From a virus: a DNA stretch of 64,000 nt. This document shows, piece after piece, positions 49,008-64,000 of the stretch. The stretch's first letter is position 1. The number at the start of each line of letters is the position of its first letter. A model generated the notes under the pieces. The model saw nothing but the letters and a program-made list of their open reading frames with translations. It ran no database searches and was not told where the DNA came from. The stretch is from IMG/VR virus record IMGVR_UViG_3300020172_000530, positions 12,690 through 76,689 of that record; one strand, given 5' to 3'. Position numbers and translations under genes: made by a program.

Positions 49008-49719
49008 AAGCGATATCGTTATCGTGCCAGTACAAGCTTCTATGTGGCGGATCGTCTTCTAAATATTGACTATTACTCACATAGTAAAATAATCTAAGTG
49101 TGTTTCTACTTACTCTATCCGGACATTGGATTGGTGTCGGATAACCATGGAATCCTGTTTTATGATACTGCCAAATTACACAACGATTGAATTTTGTAAA
49201 AACGCTTTGTACTAGATTTTTATTTGTATCGTCGTAAAATTCAATATGTCCACCAAACTCCTCTTGCCATTCTTCAGTGAGATATACAATTAGTGTCAAC
49301 TTTCTATGTAGTTTAAGTTCGTCATTCCAGTTAAAATCTGTATGAACTTTTAAACTATCACCGTTAAAGCTTCGACTATATCCTGCTCCAGTTAGATGAG
49401 GATCGGGTAACAGACCTTGTATGCCAGTAATTTTTTCTAACCACTTTAATCCTGTAGTGCTGTGTAATTGATTAACTATGTTAACTGCTTCTGGACTATA
49501 ATCCAAATTCTTACATTCCTTCATATAGCTACCACGACGTGTGAATTCAGTCCAGTGTTCAGTAGGTACACTCTCACATTCTGCTTGTAGTTTTTTTGCT
49601 GTTGATATAGGTAAAAAATCATCCAACACAAGTATTGGATGAGGTTGAGTTTTTACAAATGTTGAATGAAGTTCTTGAAAATTCGAAAACTTATTTTTTA
49701 TATATTGTATATCATACAT
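48985..49719 (-). CDS. 2OG-Fe(II) oxygenase (prolyl-hydroxylase-like fold)
   Basis: PHPILVLDDFL, LKVHTDFN (HxD), W.EEFGG.IE, FNR.VI...FHG (distal His) and R.TL..FYY. Confidence 0.85.
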   Translation of the reverse strand: MYDIQYIKNKFSNFQELHSTFVKTQPHPILVLDDFLPISTAKKLQAECESVPTEHWTEFTRRGSYMKECKNLDYSPEAVNIVNQLHSTTGLKWLEKITGIQGLLPDPHLTGAGYSRSFNGDSLKVHTDFNWNDELKLHRKLTLIVYLTEEWQEEFGGHIEFYDDTNKNLVQSVFTKFNRCVIWQYHKTGFHGYPTPIQCPDRVSRNTLRLFYYVSNSQYLEDDPPHRSLYWHDNDIAYDNRAHK

Positions 49720-50384
49720 CAGTTATTTATAGTGCTAATCATAGGAAATACATTGGATATAACTTCTGCACATGCCTTTGCCACTTCCTGATGTTCTTTT
49801 TGGGTACCATTAGCACTACGTAGCTCAATAAAATGTACCCAACTTCGCAGTGTACCATTCATATACAATCGACTCACTGTATTACCTTCTGGTAAGATAG
49901 CACGAGCTTGTTCCTTGGCAATACCTTTAGCAATTGCTTCAGCATAAGTTTCTTTTACATATTGAATAAGGAATTGCTGTTTAGCGTTCCACCAAGATTG
50001 TAATTCAACATCCTCAGTTTCTATACTATTTTGTCTATTCTTGGTGTCTTGTAATCTTGCTTCTCGAAGAACAAAGTCAAGATCTTTAGTTGGGTCTGCA
50101 TATCGTTGCGAGAACTCTTGGAATGAAAAGCTACGGTGCCGTAAAATCTGTCTGGCAATATCTCTTGTGGTTTCAATTTCGATACAGGCAGAGACCATTT
50201 CGAGTGGCGACCAGTGCTGATGTTTGATGAGGTATCGTATAAGTTTTTCGCTTGTCTCAGTGTTAAGCTGGTTGCTTGGATTGCTAACACGGGCGCAATA
50301 TGCGATAAGTTCTTGTGCGTCGCCGATACCCAGTTGTTCGAATTCTCTAGTTGGTTGACTGTAGGATAAAAGTTTGACATTCAT
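49719..50384 (-). CDS. thyX: Flavin-dependent thymidylate synthase
   Basis: ThyX signature RQILRHRSFSFQEFSQRY, plus HWSPLE and EQARAILP. Confidence 0.95.
   Translation of the reverse strand: MNVKLLSYSQPTREFEQLGIGDAQELIAYCARVSNPSNQLNTETSEKLIRYLIKHQHWSPLEMVSACIEIETTRDIARQILRHRSFSFQEFSQRYADPTKDLDFVLREARLQDTKNRQNSIETEDVELQSWWNAKQQFLIQYVKETYAEAIAKGIAKEQARAILPEGNTVSRLYMNGTLRSWVHFIELRSANGTQKEHQEVAKACAEVISNVFPMISTINN
49724..49731 (-). promoter_or_regulatory. T4-type late promoter TATAAATA
   Basis: Exact TATAAATA on the minus strand, inside the thyX 3' end and 4 nt before the oxygenase ATG. Confidence 0.5.
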
Positions 50385-55289: not shown

Positions 55290-55749
55290 TTGAGAGAGCC
55301 TGTTTCATTTCTAGTTCTGTCTTAAATGGACCTTTATGTTCATATCTTTCAATGGTGATAAGTTTAGGACAGAAACTTTTCACCCACCCTTTATCGAACT
55401 TAATAGTATAGTAACCTGCACAGTACAAGCTCTTACTAGCACCGCTTTTAGTAAACAAAGGTAATCTTTTCTGAACATTGAAAATTGGATTGAAAGGATA
55501 ACAGCTGGTAGGAAATCCATATACTTCTCTTACTTCAGTGTGACTAACTTGTGTTTTAATAGTTGTTTCGAAAAAGTCCTTACCGAATAATTTGGTTAAG
55601 TCATCTTTTCGATTAAAGTATTTTTCTCCACCTTTGGCACTCAACATGAATTTGTTGTTCTCTTTTTTATGAAGAGTTCCAATTTTTTCACCATTTTCTT
55701 CGACGATCCAAAATTTACCATCTACAATTGGTTTAGCTTTAATGTTCAT
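55273..55749 (-). CDS. Hypothetical protein
   Basis: 158-aa ORF overlapping both neighbours. Confidence 0.6.
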   Translation of the reverse strand: MNIKAKPIVDGKFWIVEENGEKIGTLHKKENNKFMLSAKGGEKYFNRKDDLTKLFGKDFFETTIKTQVSHTEVREVYGFPTSCYPFNPIFNVQKRLPLFTKSGASKSLYCAGYYTIKFDKGWVKSFCPKLITIERYEHKGPFKTELEMKQALSNAKSN

Positions 55750-56731
55750 TTATATATCTCGCTTGAAAAGGTTCTGCGTAACTTTGGATACTATCCATAA
55801 TTTTTTTCATATCGTACAGTTGACAGAATTTCATTAGCCTAATACCAACTTGACTAACATTTTTAGGTTCTTGTGTTTGTGTACGTATTGTTTCTTTGAT
55901 AAGTTCTTTAATATTGTCTGGCTGACAAGTTAAATCAATTAATTGACGATTACGTTCATAATCGTCTAACACTCTGTGTTCTTTTTTTTCATGGTCTACC
56001 CATTTTTGCAACATGAGATTATTCCACGCATATCCTTTTTTATTTTTGTCTTCAAATGCTTCTTGAAGACCTACTTTATTTTTAGTACCTTTAGTACGAA
56101 CTCCAGGATATGCACTAAAGACATTGTCGCTAGTATCACCACGCATACATTTCTCAAATAGTATCCATTCTGGATTAGGAGCAGGCGCTTCTTCTTTAGT
56201 TTTCTTATCTATGATTCGTTTACCTTTTTTATCAAAGATACCTTTATGTGTAGTAGTAGTTTCAGCTACACCATTATATTGACTTACATTAGCAGAAATT
56301 AATTGATGAAAATCACTGTCAGTGCTAATAATAATATGATTATCGTTGGGATGTGTCTGAATAAATCCTGCTATAAGATCGTCTGCTTCTAATTGTGAAT
56401 TTTGTAGAACAGTGCAATTAGTCTTTTCTGTAACAAAGTTTTTAAATTCGTCAAAGGTTTCCCAGAACAGTTTATCTTCTTCCTGTTCCTTAACTGTCAT
56501 TGCCGCACGAGTTTCTGCTCGATTGGCTTTGTAAGGCTTGTAGTAGTCTTTACGCCATGAGCGACCTTCGAGACAGAACACTACATGGCTTCCGTTAAAG
56601 TCTTGCCATGCTTTTTTAATACTGTTAAATGTAATATGAAGAGCCATGCCGAGTTTAATATCTGCGTCACCTCTTATTACATGTCGTGCTCTAAAGAATG
56701 TATTAGCAGTATCTACTAAAATATAGTTCAT
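55739..56731 (-). CDS. rnh: T4 RNase H-like 5'-3' exonuclease (PIN/FEN fold)
   Basis: ILVD..N, SWRK..Y..YKANR, LEADDLIA, ISTDSDFHQL and GDTSDNV. Confidence 0.88.
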   Translation of the reverse strand: MNYILVDTANTFFRARHVIRGDADIKLGMALHITFNSIKKAWQDFNGSHVVFCLEGRSWRKDYYKPYKANRAETRAAMTVKEQEEDKLFWETFDEFKNFVTEKTNCTVLQNSQLEADDLIAGFIQTHPNDNHIIISTDSDFHQLISANVSQYNGVAETTTTHKGIFDKKGKRIIDKKTKEEAPAPNPEWILFEKCMRGDTSDNVFSAYPGVRTKGTKNKVGLQEAFEDKNKKGYAWNNLMLQKWVDHEKKEHRVLDDYERNRQLIDLTCQPDNIKELIKETIRTQTQEPKNVSQVGIRLMKFCQLYDMKKIMDSIQSYAEPFQARYINEH

Positions 56732-57177
56732 GAAATTTCGGAACGGCCTTTCTCAATAGGAATGACGTTAATATAACCAGAACCGCGTGTAACATCTTGA
56801 CCTTCCTCTGCCAAAATGTTACGTGCCAAATCACGGAACCAACGATCTACAATTTCTTCTTCTGGATCACCATCAAAACCATATCCAGCTTCTTTTAATT
56901 GTACTACAAAATATTCGTTCCAGTCAAGTTCAAAAAAGCCATTTCTTATATTATCTGGATTTACTTTAGTGTCTAATACTGTGACCCACGGTTCTTTCAT
57001 CTCAGTAGCACGTTCTTTAGGACTTAATTTGATTAATCGTTCTTGCTCTTGAGCATTTGCTGCTTCTTCTTGCGCTCGTACAGTTTCAGCAACAGCTTTG
57101 TCTCTTGCTGCTTGTAGTATTTCTTTTTCTTCTTCTAGTTTATCAAAACCTAGTAATTTTTTTATAATTTTTTTCAT
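56728..57177 (-). CDS. Hypothetical protein
   Basis: ATG at 57177 in a TGATG overlap with the queE stop; N-terminal coiled coil. Confidence 0.6.
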   Translation of the reverse strand: MKKIIKKLLGFDKLEEEKEILQAARDKAVAETVRAQEEAANAQEQERLIKLSPKERATEMKEPWVTVLDTKVNPDNIRNGFFELDWNEYFVVQLKEAGYGFDGDPEEEIVDRWFRDLARNILAEEGQDVTRGSGYINVIPIEKGRSEIS

Positions 57178-58025
57178 CAAGTTCCCCAAGCATTTTTAAA
57201 TAATGGTACTTGTAACCTGTCGCTGTACCGTAAGCCATGTTTCATTGCTAATAGTGCTACATTTTGATTATTCATAGCATACACATTTTCTACGCCGCCT
57301 AGTGGCATAAAATACACATGACCTTCAAACCCTTCTTTTTCGTATAATTCTACAACTTCTAATGCTTCGTTAACATCGTCTTCTGTTGCTACTACAAATT
57401 TAAGATATGTATGACCTAATTTTTGATATTCGCATATAATGTCCGGACGAATAGCATCTTCTCTAGATTCTCCGCTAACGCTAAGTTTAGGACTTACACT
57501 AAATGTAAGATTATGATAACCATGTTTATGACTCCATTTCTCAAGATACTTTTGAAAGTCTTTGCTTATGGTTTGAGTACCGTTAGTCTCAAATGTAATA
57601 TCTTTTAATTTTTTAAGTTTTTCATGACTTAACAAGTCGGGGTAGGCACGTTGCCAGCCTAGTAACGGTTCTCCGCCTGTGATTACTAAATGAATATCTC
57701 TCCATTTGTGATCAGGCAATACCTCTATCATTCTATCTACTATGGCATCTACAGTTAACATAGGACTTAGATCTTTAAATCTTGGATCCCACGAAGCATA
57801 ACTATCGCAGCCTGTACTTACAATAGGTAGTTCCTCGTACTTATTATACATATTAATAACTTCAGCAACGTCGTCATTAGCTGTACTACGTTCGCCACGT
57901 GGCATACCAAATCCAGAGCAGGTAAAATTACAACCAAATGTACGTAAGAAAATAGAAGGTACACCCATGAAGCGTCCTTCTCCTTGTATACTATAAAACA
58001 GTTCTGCTATTTTTATTTTACTCAT
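57177..58025 (-). CDS. queE: 7-carboxy-7-deazaguanine synthase QueE (radical SAM)
   Basis: ELFYSIQGEG...G.PSIFLR.FGCN..C...GCDS, VITGGEPLL, FETNGT, SVSPKL and LKFVV. Confidence 0.88.
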   Translation of the reverse strand: MSKIKIAELFYSIQGEGRFMGVPSIFLRTFGCNFTCSGFGMPRGERSTANDDVAEVINMYNKYEELPIVSTGCDSYASWDPRFKDLSPMLTVDAIVDRMIEVLPDHKWRDIHLVITGGEPLLGWQRAYPDLLSHEKLKKLKDITFETNGTQTISKDFQKYLEKWSHKHGYHNLTFSVSPKLSVSGESREDAIRPDIICEYQKLGHTYLKFVVATEDDVNEALEVVELYEKEGFEGHVYFMPLGGVENVYAMNNQNVALLAMKHGLRYSDRLQVPLFKNAWGT

Positions 58026-58327
58026 TGTTTTAATACCTCTAATGTAGCTATTTTAGCTATTTTTTCTCCAAAGTCCTCTTCCTTGCCAATAACATATATC
58101 TGGTTAAGACTACGGTCACTATTACGATCATGATATCTAAATTCTACTACTTTACCACCAACAGCATTGTACACAGTGAAATTTAAAATAGCGTCACTAT
58201 TTAATTGACGAGTTTCGTAGGAACTACTAGAAACAACTTTGCCCAAGCCGTCTGCTCTATCCATTTCAATTTCCCAAGATTCTCTAGACCACTGTCTGAG
58301 TTTTTTCTTAATCCATTTTTTAATCAT
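58022..58327 (-). CDS. Hypothetical protein
   Basis: 101-aa ORF with ATGA overlap. Confidence 0.6.
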   Translation of the reverse strand: MIKKWIKKKLRQWSRESWEIEMDRADGLGKVVSSSSYETRQLNSDAILNFTVYNAVGGKVVEFRYHDRNSDRSLNQIYVIGKEEDFGEKIAKIATLEVLKQ

Positions 58328-58541
58328 CTTTCATTCCTGATATAAATTCGCTAACGCGACGTTCTGCTTCTTCCTTATCTACAGCCATTAATGTTACAGT
58401 CAATACATTGTTTTTGTCAAGTTTAATATCGTATGGCATTTTGCCGTTAAGTACAAAGTCTTCAGACATTGTTCTTACTACTTTGTATTCTTTTAGATTT
58501 TTCATCCTAAATATTACATCGTCAACAGGTTTGTTCATCAA
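58320..58541 (-). CDS. Hypothetical protein
   Basis: 73-aa ORF with GGAG RBS. Confidence 0.6.
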   Translation of the reverse strand: MMNKPVDDVIFRMKNLKEYKVVRTMSEDFVLNGKMPYDIKLDKNNVLTVTLMAVDKEEAERRVSEFISGMKDD

Positions 58542-58547
58542 TTTCTC

Positions 58548-59453
58548 CTAATTAGCATCGGGGTCGTGGGCAATACCACGCCATTGTTTGATTTTTACTT
58601 CTTGTGCTTCAGGTGTATCTTCTGCCCAGACACTAATCCATCGTGTGCCAGTCCACTTTGCTGTAGTCGAAATAGAATTTGGCCACTCATTCTTTTTGCC
58701 TGTGTCGATTTCATAGATGCCTTCGCGTATTGGATTAACTTTCTTTGAAAACCAATCAGTCATTTCGTAAGTACAGTCGTCGGAATTACGATACCGTTCC
58801 CACTTGCCGTCTTTCAATGATCCTGCTACATAGAATCCAAACTCTGAACTCTTGCCAGTAGTATCGCCGCCCCAGTTATCAATCGACTCGCCGTCATAAT
58901 CTACACCAAAAACAACCTCACTGCCGTCTACGTCTTCAATTTTGAAAGTTAATTTATTAATATCAAATGGAGCGGTGAGTTCAATGTCACCTTCGAAGAA
59001 TGTACCTTTTTCGTTACTGTTACCAATGAATACTATAGTGCCAGCAGGTTTGTCGTCAATAAAGGTTTCGTCTGTATAATCAAACTCTGGACAGTCTTCG
59101 TCTTGAAAATCTTCAAGACTACTTTGAATTACTTCGTCACCGTTTTCGTCTTCAATTCGTACAGTGCCGCTATCTCGTACAACACCATTAGTATGTGCCA
59201 TATCATCACATTCGTACCATGATCCAGGAAGGAATGGCCACATGTCTTCGGGGATATTGTGTTCTTCAGCATAGTCACTGTCCCAAGCAAAGTCACTGAC
59301 ATCTAATCTACGACTTTTAAAGTAATCATAAATTTTACGATCTACTGTGCCCATGACAGATTCGCCACCGTAGCCCCAAAGACTAATCTTATAAGTGCAT
59401 GGAGTGAATTTAAGTATTTCTATTAAATGATCTTTTTCTTTTTTAGTGGCCAT
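58548..59453 (-). CDS. Acidic hypothetical protein
   Basis: 301 aa, Asp/Glu-rich, with a Trp-rich C-terminal module (DWF...P.REG.YE...W.G..W...WRG). Confidence 0.65.
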   Translation of the reverse strand: MATKKEKDHLIEILKFTPCTYKISLWGYGGESVMGTVDRKIYDYFKSRRLDVSDFAWDSDYAEEHNIPEDMWPFLPGSWYECDDMAHTNGVVRDSGTVRIEDENGDEVIQSSLEDFQDEDCPEFDYTDETFIDDKPAGTIVFIGNSNEKGTFFEGDIELTAPFDINKLTFKIEDVDGSEVVFGVDYDGESIDNWGGDTTGKSSEFGFYVAGSLKDGKWERYRNSDDCTYEMTDWFSKKVNPIREGIYEIDTGKKNEWPNSISTTAKWTGTRWISVWAEDTPEAQEVKIKQWRGIAHDPDAN

Positions 59454-59462
59454 AAGTAATTT

Positions 59463-60230
59463 TTACCTCGGAGCAAAATCTTGTTGTAGTTTGATGTTGT
59501 CAAAAAACTCTTTTTTAGTTCCTTGATCCTCTTTGAAAGCACCTTTTAATACCGTAGTCTGCGTTAGACTACTATGTGCCATGATGCCTCTGTTTTCACA
59601 GCAGCCATGTACCGCCTGTATATAAACACCTACATCAGTAGCATCAGTTGCCTTCATAATTTCTCTAGCAATGTCATTGGCTAATTCCTCTTGTAGTGTT
59701 CCTCTACGGGCACACCATTGTGCTATACGGGTGTACTTAGATAAACCAATGAGCTTATTAGCAGCAATGATACCAATATAGGCAACTCCGCTAACAGGCT
59801 GATGATGATGACTACACATACTACGCAACTCACTGCGAACAACAAGCATGCCTTCATATCTATCTTGCGAATCGTTAGGAAATGCTGTACAGTCTGGACT
59901 TGGTTCATATCTTCCTGCCATTATTTCGTTAAAATACATTTTAGCAAGACGACGTGCTGTACCCTTGCTATTAGGATCGGTTTCTCGATCAATCAGCAGA
60001 GCATCAAGTACGCCTTCAAACGCTACAGTAGCTTCTTCAATAAGATAGTTTTTATCAAACTCGTCGTGGACATATTCGCTGATATTGTCGCCAGCCCAAA
60101 ATCTTTTACCGTCACGTTTCATCCTAGCACGAATAGCAGACGACAACGATGACTTTTTGTGGCCACCGTCACTGGCCATAGCATCTAAGCCAGTTTCGTC
60201 ATTGCTTTCATATATTTTATTATATACCAT
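59463..60230 (-). CDS. folE: GTP cyclohydrolase I
   Basis: T.RRLAKMY, SMCSHHHQP, IGLSKY.RI, LQEEL, HGCCENRG and EFF. Confidence 0.93.
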   Translation of the reverse strand: MVYNKIYESNDETGLDAMASDGGHKKSSLSSAIRARMKRDGKRFWAGDNISEYVHDEFDKNYLIEEATVAFEGVLDALLIDRETDPNSKGTARRLAKMYFNEIMAGRYEPSPDCTAFPNDSQDRYEGMLVVRSELRSMCSHHHQPVSGVAYIGIIAANKLIGLSKYTRIAQWCARRGTLQEELANDIAREIMKATDATDVGVYIQAVHGCCENRGIMAHSSLTQTTVLKGAFKEDQGTKKEFFDNIKLQQDFAPR

Positions 60231-60248
60231 AAGTTTTCCTTTGTTGCT

Positions 60249-60277
60249 ATTATATTATATTATTTAGGTTTAGTCAA
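60249..60277 (-). promoter_or_regulatory. sigma70-type promoter TTGACT-17-TATAAT for folE
   Basis: Minus strand reads TTGACT aaacctaaataatataa TATAAT, followed by an AGGA RBS. Confidence 0.7.
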
Positions 60278-61054
60278 CCGCAATAGAGTATTTTTCTTTA
60301 CTGCGGCACTTAATGTATTTAGGTTTATGCCACGGTCTTCGGCATATTTTAATAGTGCTTCTGTGTCTTTAGGGAAACAAGCACCACCGAATCCATACTG
60401 TCCGTCTGGTCCCGGAACTTGTGTATGACTATCGCCTATACGTCGATCCATCTTTATTAGATAGGCAAGATATTTCCAATCATAATTGTGAGTTTGAGCA
60501 AGTTGCTCTAGCTCATTCATAAAAACAATTTTAGTAGCAAGGAAACTATTAACGGCATATTTTACAAATGCTGCTTGACCTATATCACAGTATTCTATTT
60601 TTGTAATACTAGGTTGTATTTCTTTTAAAATGCGTACTGCTTCACGTTGATATGCTGCTACAGATCCTCCTACTATGACCCATCCTGTTGAACCAAAGTC
60701 TGCTATACTGGATTCTGCTCTTAAAAATTCAGGAACATAAATTAGATTAGGTAATTTATGACCCCAATATTCATAAAAGTTCGGCGGAGCAGTTACTTTA
60801 CTAATAATTGTTCCTGTATATCCTTTTAATTTATTGAATACATCTTCTATGATACTAACATCGCAGTAACCATCTATTCCTTGAGGACTTGGGACGCATA
60901 CAAAAATATTAGTACACGATTTAATATCATCATATGTATTTTTAAAACCTTTAGCAGGATCTAAAATAACAGACTGGAATGGTGGTATTAAATTTTGTGT
61001 TATGGCTTCACCAACGAATCCGTGACCGATTATACCAATTTTTTCGTAGTTCAT
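60260..61054 (-). CDS. UDP-glucose/GDP-mannose dehydrogenase family, lacking the C-terminal domain
   Basis: IGIIGHGFVG, FVCVPSP, PEFLR, KYAVNSFLATKI.F.NE and GFGGACFPKD (catalytic Cys). Confidence 0.85.
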   Translation of the reverse strand: MNYEKIGIIGHGFVGEAITQNLIPPFQSVILDPAKGFKNTYDDIKSCTNIFVCVPSPQGIDGYCDVSIIEDVFNKLKGYTGTIISKVTAPPNFYEYWGHKLPNLIYVPEFLRAESSIADFGSTGWVIVGGSVAAYQREAVRILKEIQPSITKIEYCDIGQAAFVKYAVNSFLATKIVFMNELEQLAQTHNYDWKYLAYLIKMDRRIGDSHTQVPGPDGQYGFGGACFPKDTEALLKYAEDRGINLNTLSAAVKKNTLLRLTKPK

Positions 61055-61293
61055 TTAACTATATACTCACTCAATAGTATTTCACACAAGACACAGTCTT
61101 TCTCGGATTTAAATCGAAATAACATACAATACATGGATGTAGAATATGTATATCTTTCTCCTGGTAAACCAAATACTTCTATTACCATGGCACATATTTC
61201 ATTCCATGGCATGTTAGTTTGATTCCATTCTACCCAGACGTTATGTCGATCGTTTGTAGTTTCCTCTTTCGGGTATGACGTGTCGTACTCCAC
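61051..61293 (-). CDS. Hypothetical protein
   Basis: 80-aa ORF; start uncertain; its stop overlaps the next ATG. Confidence 0.5.
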   Translation of the reverse strand: MEYDTSYPKEETTNDRHNVWVEWNQTNMPWNEICAMVIEVFGLPGERYTYSTSMYCMLFRFKSEKDCVLCEILLSEYIVK

Positions 61294-61618
61294 CTCTTGG
61301 ATCCTCCATATCTCCTGTGCGTCGGGGTATCATATGTACATGTGGGTACATTACTGTTTGACCCGCTGCTTCTCCAACATTTTGGCCGATGTTAAAAGCA
61401 TCCCACCTTTTAGTTTCAACACCTTCGTGTCCAAATTTATAGGCTGCTTTGTAGCACTCCCAGAGATGGTCCCAGTTTTCTTCGGTAGGCACAAATAACA
61501 AATGCCCTGGGGTAACTGCGTAAGCGTCTCTGAAGACCCAGAAGTCTTTAGTTCTGTATTCAATTTCTGACCAAGGTGCTCTTTTTTCATTTAAGGCCTT
61601 TTCTAAAGTAGTAATCAT
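61241..61618 (-). CDS. HIT family nucleotide hydrolase
   Basis: D.Y.VTPGHLLFVP and N.G.AAGQTV..PHVHMIPR; ATG at 61618 in an ATGA overlap. Confidence 0.9.
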   Translation of the reverse strand: MITTLEKALNEKRAPWSEIEYRTKDFWVFRDAYAVTPGHLLFVPTEENWDHLWECYKAAYKFGHEGVETKRWDAFNIGQNVGEAAGQTVMYPHVHMIPRRTGDMEDPRGGVRHVIPERGNYKRST

Positions 61619-62187
61619 TTCCAAAATTCTTCCCAAGGAAAAACAATCCAGCAATCTTCTTCGGCTTTGTTTACTTCGTAATATGAATAATCGGTAGTTT
61701 CTTTACTAGATAGATTGTCTACAATAACAGCAAATTTTACATTATTGTGCCATACATCGTTCCAGCCTTGGCTATTAGGCAAACATCCAGCAGGCCAATC
61801 GTTTTTAATCCATGCAAGTGTAGCACCTGTGTCGTTAATGTCGTCTACAATAAGAATATTTTTTCTTACGAACAGATCAAATGGGTCACGTGGTACAGAC
61901 ACTCCGCTTGTTTCAGAATGAGCAGGATCTTGATCTTCTTCTTTAACATAACCGAATGCATGTTCAGCCATCCATAGATTGCTTTCACATTCGCCACTAT
62001 CTCTTAAACTTACTTTAAGAGTCTCACAAGGCACTTCTAAAAATTGACTTAACATTACTGCAGGGATTAGACCGCCTCTGGTAAGTCCTACAATATAATC
62101 TGGCCGCCAATTATCTTTCTGTAACTGACGAGCAATGTCAATTACGGCTCCGTGTATGTCTTTCCATTGATAGTAAATCTTTTTCAT
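61615..62187 (-). CDS. Type I phosphoribosyltransferase (Gpt-like)
   Basis: IVGLTRGGLIPA, PRPP loop ILIVDDINDTGATL and WIVFPWE. Confidence 0.88.
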   Translation of the reverse strand: MKKIYYQWKDIHGAVIDIARQLQKDNWRPDYIVGLTRGGLIPAVMLSQFLEVPCETLKVSLRDSGECESNLWMAEHAFGYVKEEDQDPAHSETSGVSVPRDPFDLFVRKNILIVDDINDTGATLAWIKNDWPAGCLPNSQGWNDVWHNNVKFAVIVDNLSSKETTDYSYYEVNKAEEDCWIVFPWEEFWK

Positions 62188-62387
62188 ACTGTTAAGTTTT
62201 CTTGAAAATGTTTAATTTCGTCTAAGGTAAGCATGAATTGATAAGTGCTAGTATTTAATAACTCACCTTTGTCGTTGTATTCTTCGTTGACAATTTCTAC
62301 ATTTTTTAAATGTTCTGGACGTTGACAATCACTGATTGTAACGTATCTTTTAAAACAACTAGAGTTTCTGAGATAAAATTTTTTCAT
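62184..62387 (-). CDS. Hypothetical protein
   Basis: ATG at 62387 in an ATGA overlap. Confidence 0.5.
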   Translation of the reverse strand: MKKFYLRNSSCFKRYVTISDCQRPEHLKNVEIVNEEYNDKGELLNTSTYQFMLTLDEIKHFQENLTV

Positions 62388-62752
62388 TTTGATTCCTTTA
62401 AAGTTTCCCAAGTTTTGTATTCTGATAACGCTTTGTTGTATTCGTTGTAAAGTTTCTTAAGCTTTGAATACTTCTCCTCCATTATAACATCTCTTGTAGG
62501 AATGTTCAACATAGTTTCTATTCGTTTCAATCTTTCGTGTAGGTCTTCACCATTCCATTCTATTCTACCGGTAATTTTCACACTAGGATCTTCGCTATTT
62601 GGAATTTCCAAAACAGCTTTACCTTTGGCGTTATTGAATTGAGTAGTTGTACTTGTACTTGTAGTAAACGAACCTGTTCCACCGCTTCCACCGTTGCCAG
62701 TAGACACATATATTTGACCAGTAGTTGTGGCAGGTATTGTAAAAGTTGTCAT
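62384..62752 (-). CDS. Hypothetical protein with Thr/Gly-rich N-terminus and helical C-terminus
   Basis: ATG at 62752 lies just after the upstream stop; the longer track ORF overlaps a neighbour. Confidence 0.55.
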   Translation of the reverse strand: MTTFTIPATTTGQIYVSTGNGGSGGTGSFTTSTSTTTQFNNAKGKAVLEIPNSEDPSVKITGRIEWNGEDLHERLKRIETMLNIPTRDVIMEEKYSKLKKLYNEYNKALSEYKTWETLKESK

Positions 62753-62753
62753 A

Positions 62754-63152
62754 CTACTTGTGACCTTTACGTTCTCTTTCTTTTCCGTCGTAATCTTCTT
62801 TGACCATTTTATAAACTTCCTTAAACTTACGATATGCGATTTCCAATCCAGGGTAATCTTTACACATTTTTTGAACACGGTCGTAGTCGGGAAATCTGCC
62901 ATCAAAATCTTCCTTAACCCAATAATTATTGGAACCAGTAAAACTTCCTATATCAATTGTTTCTATATTTCCAATAGTGATACTTCCTGATCCATAAGGT
63001 GTTCCAGTAAGAGTAATTATATCCGCACTAGTCAATGCTGGAATACTAGTAGGAGTTAAATTAGCCCATGTATCACTACTTAAAGTAAATGTTTCAAGCT
63101 CTAATTTATCTAATGGTATTGTAAAGTTTTGTTCCTGCGAAGAATTGTTCAC
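62754..63152 (-). CDS. Hypothetical protein with Thr/Ser-rich N-terminus and helical C-terminus
   Basis: C-terminal MCKDYPGLEIAYRKFKEVY module. Confidence 0.55.
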   Translation of the reverse strand: MNNSSQEQNFTIPLDKLELETFTLSSDTWANLTPTSIPALTSADIITLTGTPYGSGSITIGNIETIDIGSFTGSNNYWVKEDFDGRFPDYDRVQKMCKDYPGLEIAYRKFKEVYKMVKEDYDGKERERKGHK

Positions 63153-64000
63153 GTAGTGCCTCCGTTTGTTTATGCAACATAGGAAGCCTTGTTTGGTAAT
63201 TATCCATGTGCTGCATGATAGTCATACATAATTCTTTTCTATGGGCAATATATAAATCCCAATTTTCTGTCCACTCGCTAGGATATTTGAAAGTGTCAAA
63301 GTACATTTCTGTGTAACTAAGTCTATCAGGTACCACGGGAATTGCTCCTAATATAGCACCTTCATAGCAACTAATACCTAATGTTTCTTGTAAGTTGGCA
63401 CTAAACACAAGTTTAGCCTCGCCTAACAAATTATGATATTCGTTTTTAGTTAATTGCTGATCCTGACAAACAACAAATTCATATTGTGGCAATTGCTCTT
63501 TTAAATCTCTAAAGATGTTAACTTGTTTTTCTGGAGCAATACGATGAGGGAATAAGATAAGATCACGTTTAGTCATGCCTTTATATGGAGTTAATACATC
63601 ATCCATATATTCCATGGGCCAGCCGGTTCTTACAATACTAGGAATTTTTCCATTTACAGCATCTTCTACGTCTTCGTCAAGCCAAGGGTTTTCTGTTAGA
63701 CCATCGTTCAACAAATTACGCACAACCATTTCAATATGAAAGCCTGTGGCAAAATAATTATAATTAAAACATCCGAAGAAACTTTTCTCCGCATGGCGTA
63801 CCCAACCCGCATTACCAATTAATCTACCTAAAAAATCTTGAGGATCATAACTGCCGGCATGCCACAAGCCGTGTGTAGTTACTGGAATTCCCAGTAACTC
63901 ACTCATATATTTAAGATTGATGATACCAGGGTGCCAAGCATCAGTAAATATAAAATGATCACCTGCATGAACGGCTCCGTCGCAAAAAAGCCGACCCATC
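63106..64000 (-). CDS. GT-B (GT4-like) glycosyltransferase (5'-partial)
   Basis: ILFPHRIAPEKQ and QETLGISCYEG (Ex7E) ...PDRLSY.E. It runs to the window edge, so the Met at 63999 is probably internal. Confidence 0.75.
   Translation of the reverse strand, partial: MGRLFCDGAVHAGDHFIFTDAWHPGIINLKYMSELLGIPVTTHGLWHAGSYDPQDFLGRLIGNAGWVRHAEKSFFGCFNYNYFATGFHIEMVVRNLLNDGLTENPWLDEDVEDAVNGKIPSIVRTGWPMEYMDDVLTPYKGMTKRDLILFPHRIAPEKQVNIFRDLKEQLPQYEFVVCQDQQLTKNEYHNLLGEAKLVFSANLQETLGISCYEGAILGAIPVVPDRLSYTEMYFDTFKYPSEWTENWDLYIAHRKELCMTIMQHMDNYQTRLPMLHKQTEALREQFFAGTKLYNTIR

Follow-up and report, generated by a model that had tools for sequence, protein, structure and literature searches.

Among the described systems that place 7-deazaguanine bases in phage DNA, that of Cellulophaga phage phiST is closest to the locus presented here. 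In phiST, 100% of G is replaced by the 7-deazaguanine base dDG, and DpdL, a QueD paralog, was proposed to decarboxylate 7-carboxy-7-deazaguanine (CDG) to 7-deazaguanine (Cui, Hutinet et al., NAR 2023, PMC10516641). We describe a gene block located at positions 57177 to 64000 of a window of 64,000 nucleotides, which comprises bases 12690-76689 of a single linear viral contig of 76,689 bp (IMG/VR record IMGVR_UViG_3300020172_000530). The block contains genes for QueE-like and FolE enzymes together with a Gpt-type phosphoribosyltransferase (PRTase), a HIT-family protein, a short dehydrogenase resembling UDP-glucose dehydrogenase (UGDH) and a GT-B glycosyltransferase. Compared with related phages, it is probably one half, the downstream one, of a 7-deazaguanine DNA-modification island of the QueC-less DpdL type that belongs to a large T4-like phage. 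The initial annotation had seen in it a possible new route to a hypermodified base; of this, a 7-deazaguanine DNA hypermodification locus with unusual partners was retained, whereas the argument for a route independent of DpdA was given up. The system would be a variant form of the DpdL-type dDG system in which the transglycosylase belongs to a new subfamily, GT-B is conserved and a purine PRTase recurs.

The system of phiST and that of the window's clade share FolE, QueD and QueE without QueC, a DpdL homolog (phrog_17812), a protein with the fold of tRNA-guanine transglycosylase (TGT) that Pfam cannot detect, and a homologous Gpt-type PRTase, which in phiST lies elsewhere in the genome (CGPG_00045). 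In contrast to phiST, the transglycosylase of the clade belongs to a different, much larger family (510-570 aa) without a match to the DpdA3 profile phrog_20335, and GT-B and sugar-donor enzymes are inserted, none of which occur in phiST. Furthermore, a MazG-like gene lies inside the phiST cluster but not inside that of the clade, while HIT is found in the window clade only.

A second close counterpart is found in the Pseudomonas jumbo phage PA5oct (Wroclawvirus), whose region gp162-gp168 comprises a TGT-like protein (gp168, 1.4e-155), GT-B (gp167), DpdL (gp166), a small open reading frame (ORF; gp165), the PRTase (gp163) and QueE (gp162), with QueD far away (gp230). Differences concern the epimerase-like gp164, which stands in place of the UGDH-like gene, the lack of HIT, and the host and phage family. 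For the DNA of PA5oct a modified G was reported, the base of which was not identified, and only QueE and PTPS were noted among the genes; the DNA is attacked by nucleases sensing hypermodified G, and the modification appears to be motif-dependent (PMC12191111, 2025 preprint).

Genes of the block and their conservation

The presence of queE, folE, the Gpt-like PRTase, HIT, the sugar dehydrogenase and GT-B in one co-oriented block, as described in the initial annotation, was confirmed for the minus strand. From 57177 to the end of the window all sizeable ORFs lie on this strand and are tightly packed, as follows:

57177..58025, minus strand: QueE-like radical SAM enzyme (7-carboxy-7-deazaguanine synthase type), 282 aa; phrog_2076, 8e-55
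58022..58541, minus strand: two small ORFs of 101 aa and 73 aa between FolE and QueE; families in 33 and 50 related loci
58548..59453, minus strand: ORF of 301 aa without family match; homologs in 6/80 loci only
59463..60230, minus strand: FolE, GTP cyclohydrolase I, 255 aa; PF01227, 5e-39; phrog_2197, 2e-44
60260..61054, minus strand: short UGDH-like NAD-dependent dehydrogenase, 264 aa; PF00984, 1e-21; PF03721, 2e-7
61051..61293, minus strand: conserved small ORF, 80 aa; family in 47/80 loci
61241..61654, minus strand: HIT-family nucleotide hydrolase/transferase (Fhit / Ap4A-phosphorylase-like), true start probably at 61618; PF01230, 9e-9
61615..62187, minus strand: Gpt/HGXPRT-type 6-oxopurine PRTase, 190 aa; PF00156, 3e-15
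62184..63152, minus strand: three small or low-complexity ORFs of 75, 173 and 132 aa between the PRTase and GT-B; kept in a sub-clade, 11-13 of 25 loci
63106..63999, minus strand: GT-B (GT4-like) glycosyltransferase, N-terminally cut; assigned with an AlphaFold2 model of a full-length ortholog

The window proteins were mapped onto 80 related loci and the ORFs of these neighbourhoods were clustered; those 25 that extend 7 kb or more upstream of QueE are referred to as long loci. FolE and the PRTase were each found in 25/25 long loci and GT-B in 24, directly preceded by a DpdL-like protein in 22, while a protein of ~177 aa (U177) occurred in 21, HIT in 18 and a protein of ~514 aa (U514) in 17. 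The gene order in the relatives runs from U514 (TGT-like), U177, the DpdL-like protein, U79 and GT-B via the PRTase and HIT to FolE/QueE, with further genes after GT-B and after HIT. This arrangement is not due to chance. Since the contig stops inside the GT-B gene, the remaining members of the island would lie beyond window position 64000. According to CheckV, the contig is ~22% complete, and it has no terminal repeat. A circular junction was considered and rejected on account of the missing repeat and of the frames at both contig ends, which do not join, and the first 12.7 kb of the contig are therefore not the continuation of the cluster. Among cultured phages, a megablast search with the block gave no match.

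The QueE-like gene is the most conserved member (80/80 loci), and at least 591 relatives of its protein were found in IMG/VR, some of them on contigs of 200-345 kb. The NCBIfam QueE models match the window protein weakly, below their cut-offs; its QGEG and GGEP motifs and three Cys are invariant among 61 orthologs, and it shares 45% identity with the QueE of Synechococcus phage BUCT-ZZ01. FolE comprises an N-terminal extension of ~70 aa and conserved Zn ligands (C139, H141, H142, H208 and C210), and phiST FolE matches it at 2e-40. Conserved catalytic motifs are likewise present in the UGDH-like protein, HIT and the PRTase.

For the small ORFs the picture is less uniform. Those of 101 and 73 aa matched neither Pfam nor PHROG families, and those of 75, 173 and 132 aa had no Pfam match, the 173-aa family also matching PA5oct gp165 (8e-8). 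The 80-aa family is always located between HIT/PRTase and QueE or FolE. Homologs of the 301-aa ORF sit elsewhere in the relatives, after RNase H, and this ORF probably stands outside the conserved module.

Further families were observed in the islands of relatives. In L064 (7461-7880), a small HhH-GPD DNA-glycosylase-like ORF (PF00730, 4.7e-8) is encoded two genes upstream of the PRTase; the corresponding family U139 is present in 7/25 long loci and not in the window. Likewise missing from the window is the neighbouring 156-aa family U156 (17/25 loci), in which a cupin-like HDHPW motif was seen by eye only. Neither U177 nor U156 had a match among PDB sequences.

DpdL, QueD and the putative transglycosylase of related phages

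The small protein upstream of GT-B in the relatives is a homolog of phiST DpdL (phmmer 1e-13; phrog_17812 7.5e-33). It was found in 12 of the 18 genomes searched, which are most of the relatives whose contig reaches that position, and phrog_17812 matched with 1e-29 to 1e-39 in 11 related genomes. DpdL is not on the window contig, which stops one to two genes before its position.

As already stated in the initial annotation, no queD and no dpdA or tgt lies in the window, and on the whole 76.7 kb contig (~22% complete) there was no Pfam match to PTPS/QueD or to TGT, nor to QueC at E<=1 (PF06508). The suggested search for these genes gave a different picture in the relatives, which carry QueD, DpdL and a TGT-fold gene but no true QueC. 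QueD was found in G003, G004 and G005, ~60 kb away from the cluster in G003, and it adjoins QueE in L011-L014, L018, L079 and L081. In the 94%-complete relative G003, QueC matches were limited to 60-residue partials inside unrelated ORFs of 371 and 402 aa, ~90 kb or more from the cluster, and these fragments in larger, distant ORFs were rejected as QueC. Judged by these searches, QueC appears to be effectively absent from the system.

Sequence searches for DpdA in the clade with Pfam TGT, DUF6610 (DpdA4), phrog_20335 (DpdA3), phrog_19058 and phiST DpdA3 as a single query gave no match. The Pfam TGT model also misses the DpdA3 of phiST itself and is therefore invalid as a negative test. A DpdA-free route was first read from the negative searches and was dropped after TGT motifs and a TGT fold became apparent in the 514-aa family. 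The alignment of U514 (proteins of 510-570 aa) showed the motifs GDSGG[YF]Q, LDVP, VLQG, GWAMGG, HFLGT and FDCASP, which we take to be TGT signature motifs. In the AlphaFold model (pLDDT 67 overall, 70-90 in the barrel core), the top 50 Foldseek matches in the PDB are all bacterial TGT, archaeosine TGT (ArcTGT) or QTRT1 (E ~5e-7, probability 1.00). A profile search of U514 against PDB sequences and hhalign comparisons with phiST DpdA3 and the BUCT-ZZ01 protein hyp416 gave nothing significant. Based on the model, U514 is likely a divergent TGT-fold, DpdA-like enzyme. The family comprises at least 7,968 metagenome members, all without annotation.

Besides PA5oct, the module was found in three cultured phages. 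Sinorhizobium phage Phosso carries DpdL, GT-B, FolE and QueE, with a U514-type gene at a distant locus. Acidovorax phage ACP17 encodes QueD, FolE, the U177-like gp122, gp123, GT-B, DpdL and QueE, and Synechococcus phage BUCT-ZZ01 encodes QueE, the PRTase, QueD, FolE, a second glycosyltransferase, hyp416, DpdL and GT-B. ACP17 gp123 and BUCT-ZZ01 hyp416 are homologous (1e-69) and both contain a DSGGLQ motif, so that they likely form a second DpdA-like family. In every lineage with the module, a protein with a TGT fold or a DSGG motif was found.

Altogether, the missing dpdA can be explained by the end of the contig at this point and by a family that has diverged too far for Pfam to detect. From the lack of dpdA/tgt and queD, a DpdA-independent route at the nucleotide level had been argued. 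This argument does not hold, since the contig covers only ~22% and ends in the cluster, while the relatives carry the TGT-fold gene and DpdL a few kb further on and QueD elsewhere or beside QueE.

Glycosyltransferase, phosphoribosyltransferase and the proposed pathway

For the island the following pathway is proposed. GTP would be converted to CDG by FolE, the QueE-like enzyme and QueD, whose gene would lie elsewhere in the genome. CDG would then be processed by the DpdL homolog just beyond the contig end; following the phiST proposal, this step would be a decarboxylation to 7-deazaguanine. The divergent TGT-fold (DpdA-like) enzyme, also off the contig, would then swap guanine in replicated phage DNA for the deazaguanine base. 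A sugar would probably be attached by GT-B, either to this base or to a precursor, with sugar-donor enzymes that differ among lineages; in the window clade these would be the short UGDH-like dehydrogenase and perhaps also HIT. Guanine freed by base exchange is most likely recycled by the Gpt-type PRTase via GMP to GTP for FolE.

The GT-B ORF of the window (63106-63999) had no Pfam match. Its orthologs comprise 351-373 aa (~365 aa), and the window copy is short of ~68 N-terminal residues because the contig ends there. The AlphaFold2 model of a full-length ortholog (pLDDT 84, pTM 0.82) gave 218 PDB matches at E<=0.001, GT4 enzymes first, with glycogen synthase, BshA, MshA and PimA at the top of the Foldseek results. 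In this model two Rossmann-like domains are seen, the C-terminal one being a GT4-type donor-binding domain. Among viral structures, the glycosyltransferase of ACP17 matched best (E 3e-26, TM 0.84-0.90). A GT-B fold in a DNA base-modification module of a T4-like phage recalls the T4 alpha- and beta-glucosyltransferases, which glucosylate hydroxymethylcytosine in DNA, and a weak structural match to the 'DNA alpha-GT' of cyanophage S-TIM5 was obtained at rank 29. Unlike the T4 enzymes, however, the closest structures to GT-B are GT4 enzymes acting on small molecules or glycans, and the block includes no hydroxymethyl-pyrimidine pathway. A purine analogue, or a precursor of it, would serve as acceptor.

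The UGDH-like protein matches positions 67-294 of a 413-position model and comprises the N-terminal NAD-binding and central domains only. The GxGxxG Rossmann motif and the catalytic Cys motif GGxCFPKD are kept, but the C-terminal UDP-binding domain is missing (no PF03720 match), and the assignment as a UDP-glucose dehydrogenase in the initial annotation is refined to a UGDH-like protein. The gene occurs in 9/80 loci, in the closest relatives only, and all 9 orthologs have 265 aa. Short UGDH-like proteins form virus-specific clusters of 259-293 aa, one of them fused to a cytidylyltransferase-like domain. Glycosylation of the modified base with a uronic acid had also been suggested. Glycosylation as such is compatible with all findings, whereas the missing UDP-binding domain of the UGDH-like protein and its restriction to the closest relatives make a uronic acid donor doubtful.

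The sugar-related partner changes with the lineage, with the UGDH-like protein in the window clade, the epimerase-like gp164 in PA5oct and a second glycosyltransferase in BUCT-ZZ01. An NDP-sugar epimerase/dehydratase was found in L081, and GFO/IDH/MocA and alcohol dehydrogenase-like oxidoreductases in L009. Such variable enzymes fit a glycosylated product whose sugar differs among lineages. The second glycosyltransferase of BUCT-ZZ01 (L089:10918-12261) is a group-1-like protein of 447 aa directly upstream of the DpdA-like hyp416, and this phage may add more than one sugar.

Alternatively, GT-B, the UGDH-like protein and HIT could be unrelated passengers next to an ordinary dDG system, with targets such as the surface sugars of the host or proteins of the virion. 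The narrow distribution of the UGDH-like gene and of HIT would agree with this, as would the lack of an evident sugar acceptor group in 7-deazaguanine; large phages often carry sugar genes, and the contig itself has a separate 20-kb cluster of glycosyltransferases and radical SAM proteins. Nonetheless, GT-B is present in nearly all long loci and adjoins DpdL in five lineages of otherwise differing gene order (window clade, BUCT-ZZ01, ACP17, PA5oct and Phosso), and in ACP17 and PA5oct it lies directly against the TGT-like gene or overlaps it. GT-B was detected in G003, Phosso, PA5oct, ACP17 and BUCT-ZZ01, but not in phiST (dDG) or CP220 (dADG), exactly the two searched phages with known, sugar-free bases (PMC10516641). 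Passenger genes are thus a doubtful explanation, and a role of GT-B in the modification is preferred.

In a profile search against the PDB, the PRTase matched the Pyrococcus purine PRTase 1vdm end to end (9e-14), followed by GpT-2, HGPRT and XGPRT. Among 21 orthologs, R37-G38-G39, V114-D115-D116-I-N-D119-T-G121 and W180 (hood) are invariant or nearly so, and by these type I motifs the protein is classed as a classical 6-oxopurine PRTase. In such enzymes, the Asp of the DTG motif contacts the purine N7; its retention speaks, if mildly, for guanine and against a 7-deaza substrate. Of the genomes tested, G003, BUCT-ZZ01, phiST and PA5oct have the PRTase, whereas it was not found in ACP17, Phosso and CP220. 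The remainder of the module exists in ACP17 and Phosso all the same, which marks the PRTase as recurrent but accessory, and not as an obligatory step. Together with the retained Asp, this makes it look more like an accessory enzyme acting on guanine, with recycling as the preferred, though tentative, reading. The PRTase is linked to the module in four lineages, and among cultured phages its homologs were found only in deazaguanine phages.

For HIT, the PDB profile search gave NitFhit (3e-12) and Ap4A phosphorylase (4e-10) as well as Fhit and HIT proteins. H51, H105 and H107 and the stretch P-H105-V-H107-x-I-P-R-R are invariant, while the first His of the triad is replaced. It may serve in nucleotide handling or in nucleotidyl transfer during sugar-donor synthesis.

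PRTases that act on preQ0 or CDG are known from the toyocamycin and tubercidin pathways (ToyH and TubE). By analogy, the phage PRTase could join CDG or 7-deazaguanine to phosphoribosyl pyrophosphate before replication, kinases and ribonucleotide reductase could lead on to deaza-dGTP, and the polymerase would incorporate it, with the TGT-like enzyme being secondary or acting elsewhere. The likeness to these pathways concerns gene context: the PRTase is coupled to FolE, QueD and QueE, and in one sub-lineage an IMP dehydrogenase (IMPDH)/GMP-reductase family gene (L071:6183-7202; PF00478, 4.8e-71) lies between FolE and the PRTase and recalls ToyE/TubD of the deazapurine nucleoside pathways. The constancy of the PRTase in the clade, which equals that of FolE, its direct contact with QueE in BUCT-ZZ01 and PA5oct and its restriction to deazaguanine phages among cultured ones could be explained in this way. 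A paper from 2019 also leaves a route via modified dGTP open. In addition, phiST, with its PRTase homolog, replaces all of its G, and the failed dDG reconstitution was carried out without a PRTase, an enzyme which the paper never mentions (PMC10516641).

Several observations speak against such a route. In contrast to the toyocamycin and tubercidin pathways, the block showed neither an adenylosuccinate synthetase or lyase nor a phosphatase, the module includes a TGT-fold enzyme, and the product of the related phages is a DNA base and not a free nucleoside. A TGT-fold gene accompanies every module lineage, ACP17 and Phosso manage without the PRTase, and the Asp that contacts purine N7 in 6-oxopurine PRTases is retained. 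The cluster has no linked enzyme for clearing dGTP; searches for MazG and dimeric dUTPase gave MazG-like genes only far from it, which is uninformative in itself. Moreover, the modification of PA5oct seems to depend on a motif, which would not be expected of a replaced dNTP pool (PMC12191111). Incorporation at the nucleotide level is thus regarded as unlikely.

It is highly improbable that the genes instead boost a tRNA or small-molecule pathway, i.e. supply a queuosine precursor for host tRNA or form a pterin glycoside by means of FolE, a PTPS-like protein and a pterin glycosyltransferase: the 2019 paper does list tRNA-Q boosting as an option for phages with preQ0 genes and without DpdA, DpdL and QueD are PTPS-fold proteins, and the GT-B model matches the Synechococcus UDP-glucose:tetrahydrobiopterin glucosyltransferase 5zes at rank 13, but this match is no better than that to many other GT4 enzymes, without QueC no preQ0 would be formed, the QueE-like gene as the most conserved member has no role in pterin synthesis, the island lies among replication genes (RNase H) and adjoins the DNA polymerase in Phosso and ACP17, the DNA of PA5oct is modified at G (PMC12191111), and dDG occurs in the DNA of phiST, whose FolE/QueD/QueE/DpdL set is the same (PMC10516641).

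Returning to the proposed modification of DNA by base exchange and glycosylation, a number of points weigh against it. DpdL, the TGT-like gene and QueD are off the contig, and that this phage has them is inferred from relatives with a GT-B of 72-77% identity. Confidence in the TGT-like model is only moderate (pLDDT 67), and sequence methods give no link between U514 and TGT; to our knowledge, no enzyme of the DpdA3 or U514 type has a demonstrated activity. The linkage of the PRTase (25/25 long loci, beside QueE in two cultured phages) is tighter than mere salvage would need. In E. coli, dDG was not reconstituted from DpdL and DpdA, and neither a glycosyltransferase nor a PRTase is mentioned in that study (PMC10516641).

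The glycosylation step raises a difficulty of its own. 7-Deazaguanine offers no obvious site for O-glycosylation, and GT-B might act on a non-DNA acceptor. Due to the missing hydroxyl group, the sugar would have to be placed on a nitrogen, a ring carbon or a precursor. All 7-deazaguanine DNA bases that we know of (dPreQ0, dPreQ1, dADG, dG+, dDG, dCDG, mdPreQ1 and fdPreQ1) are free of sugar, and no report of a glycosylated deazaguanine in DNA was found in the literature.

Surrounding genes and significance

The region is flanked by a T4-type RNase H / 5'-3' exonuclease (55739-56731, minus strand) and by the flavin-dependent thymidylate synthase ThyX (49719-50384, minus strand; PF02511, 2.5e-45). 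A match to a 'virion structural protein' PHROG (phrog_13349, 2e-15) was obtained for the ORF at 56728-57189, whose linkage to QueE extends to 80/80 related loci. On the minus strand, the segment 51878-54224 encodes a MoxR/AAA ATPase of 367 aa and, after it, a DUF2201 metallopeptidase-like and VWA protein of 390 aa, a CobS/CobT-like pair common in large T4-like phages. Within the contig's first 12.7 kb, Rad50/Mre11-like (gp46/gp47-type) genes (L001:1925-4740) adjoin a SegE-type GIY-YIG homing endonuclease (L001:1240-1680; PF19835, 3e-34).

As a tentative extension, PA5oct, ACP17, BUCT-ZZ01, Phosso and other phages with the module could carry a sugar-bearing 7-deazaguanine in their DNA, GT-B adding the sugar and the lineage-specific donor genes setting its identity, while the PRTase would close the loop from guanine to GTP or give a second entry at the nucleotide level. 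If GT-B acts on the base, DNA hypermodification would gain a further class, with a purine analogue that carries a sugar, and this would bear on restriction evasion, on defence systems that sense modified DNA (END nucleases) and on the sequencing of such phages. The 'unknown enzymes' whose lack may underlie the failed dDG reconstitution of 2023 could plausibly include the PRTase and GT-B. Since the module is present in cultured phages, the chemistry of the final base is open to direct test there. With roughly 8,000 or more unannotated members of the transglycosylase family in metagenomes, guanine modification of this kind may be far commoner in large environmental phages than their annotation suggests.

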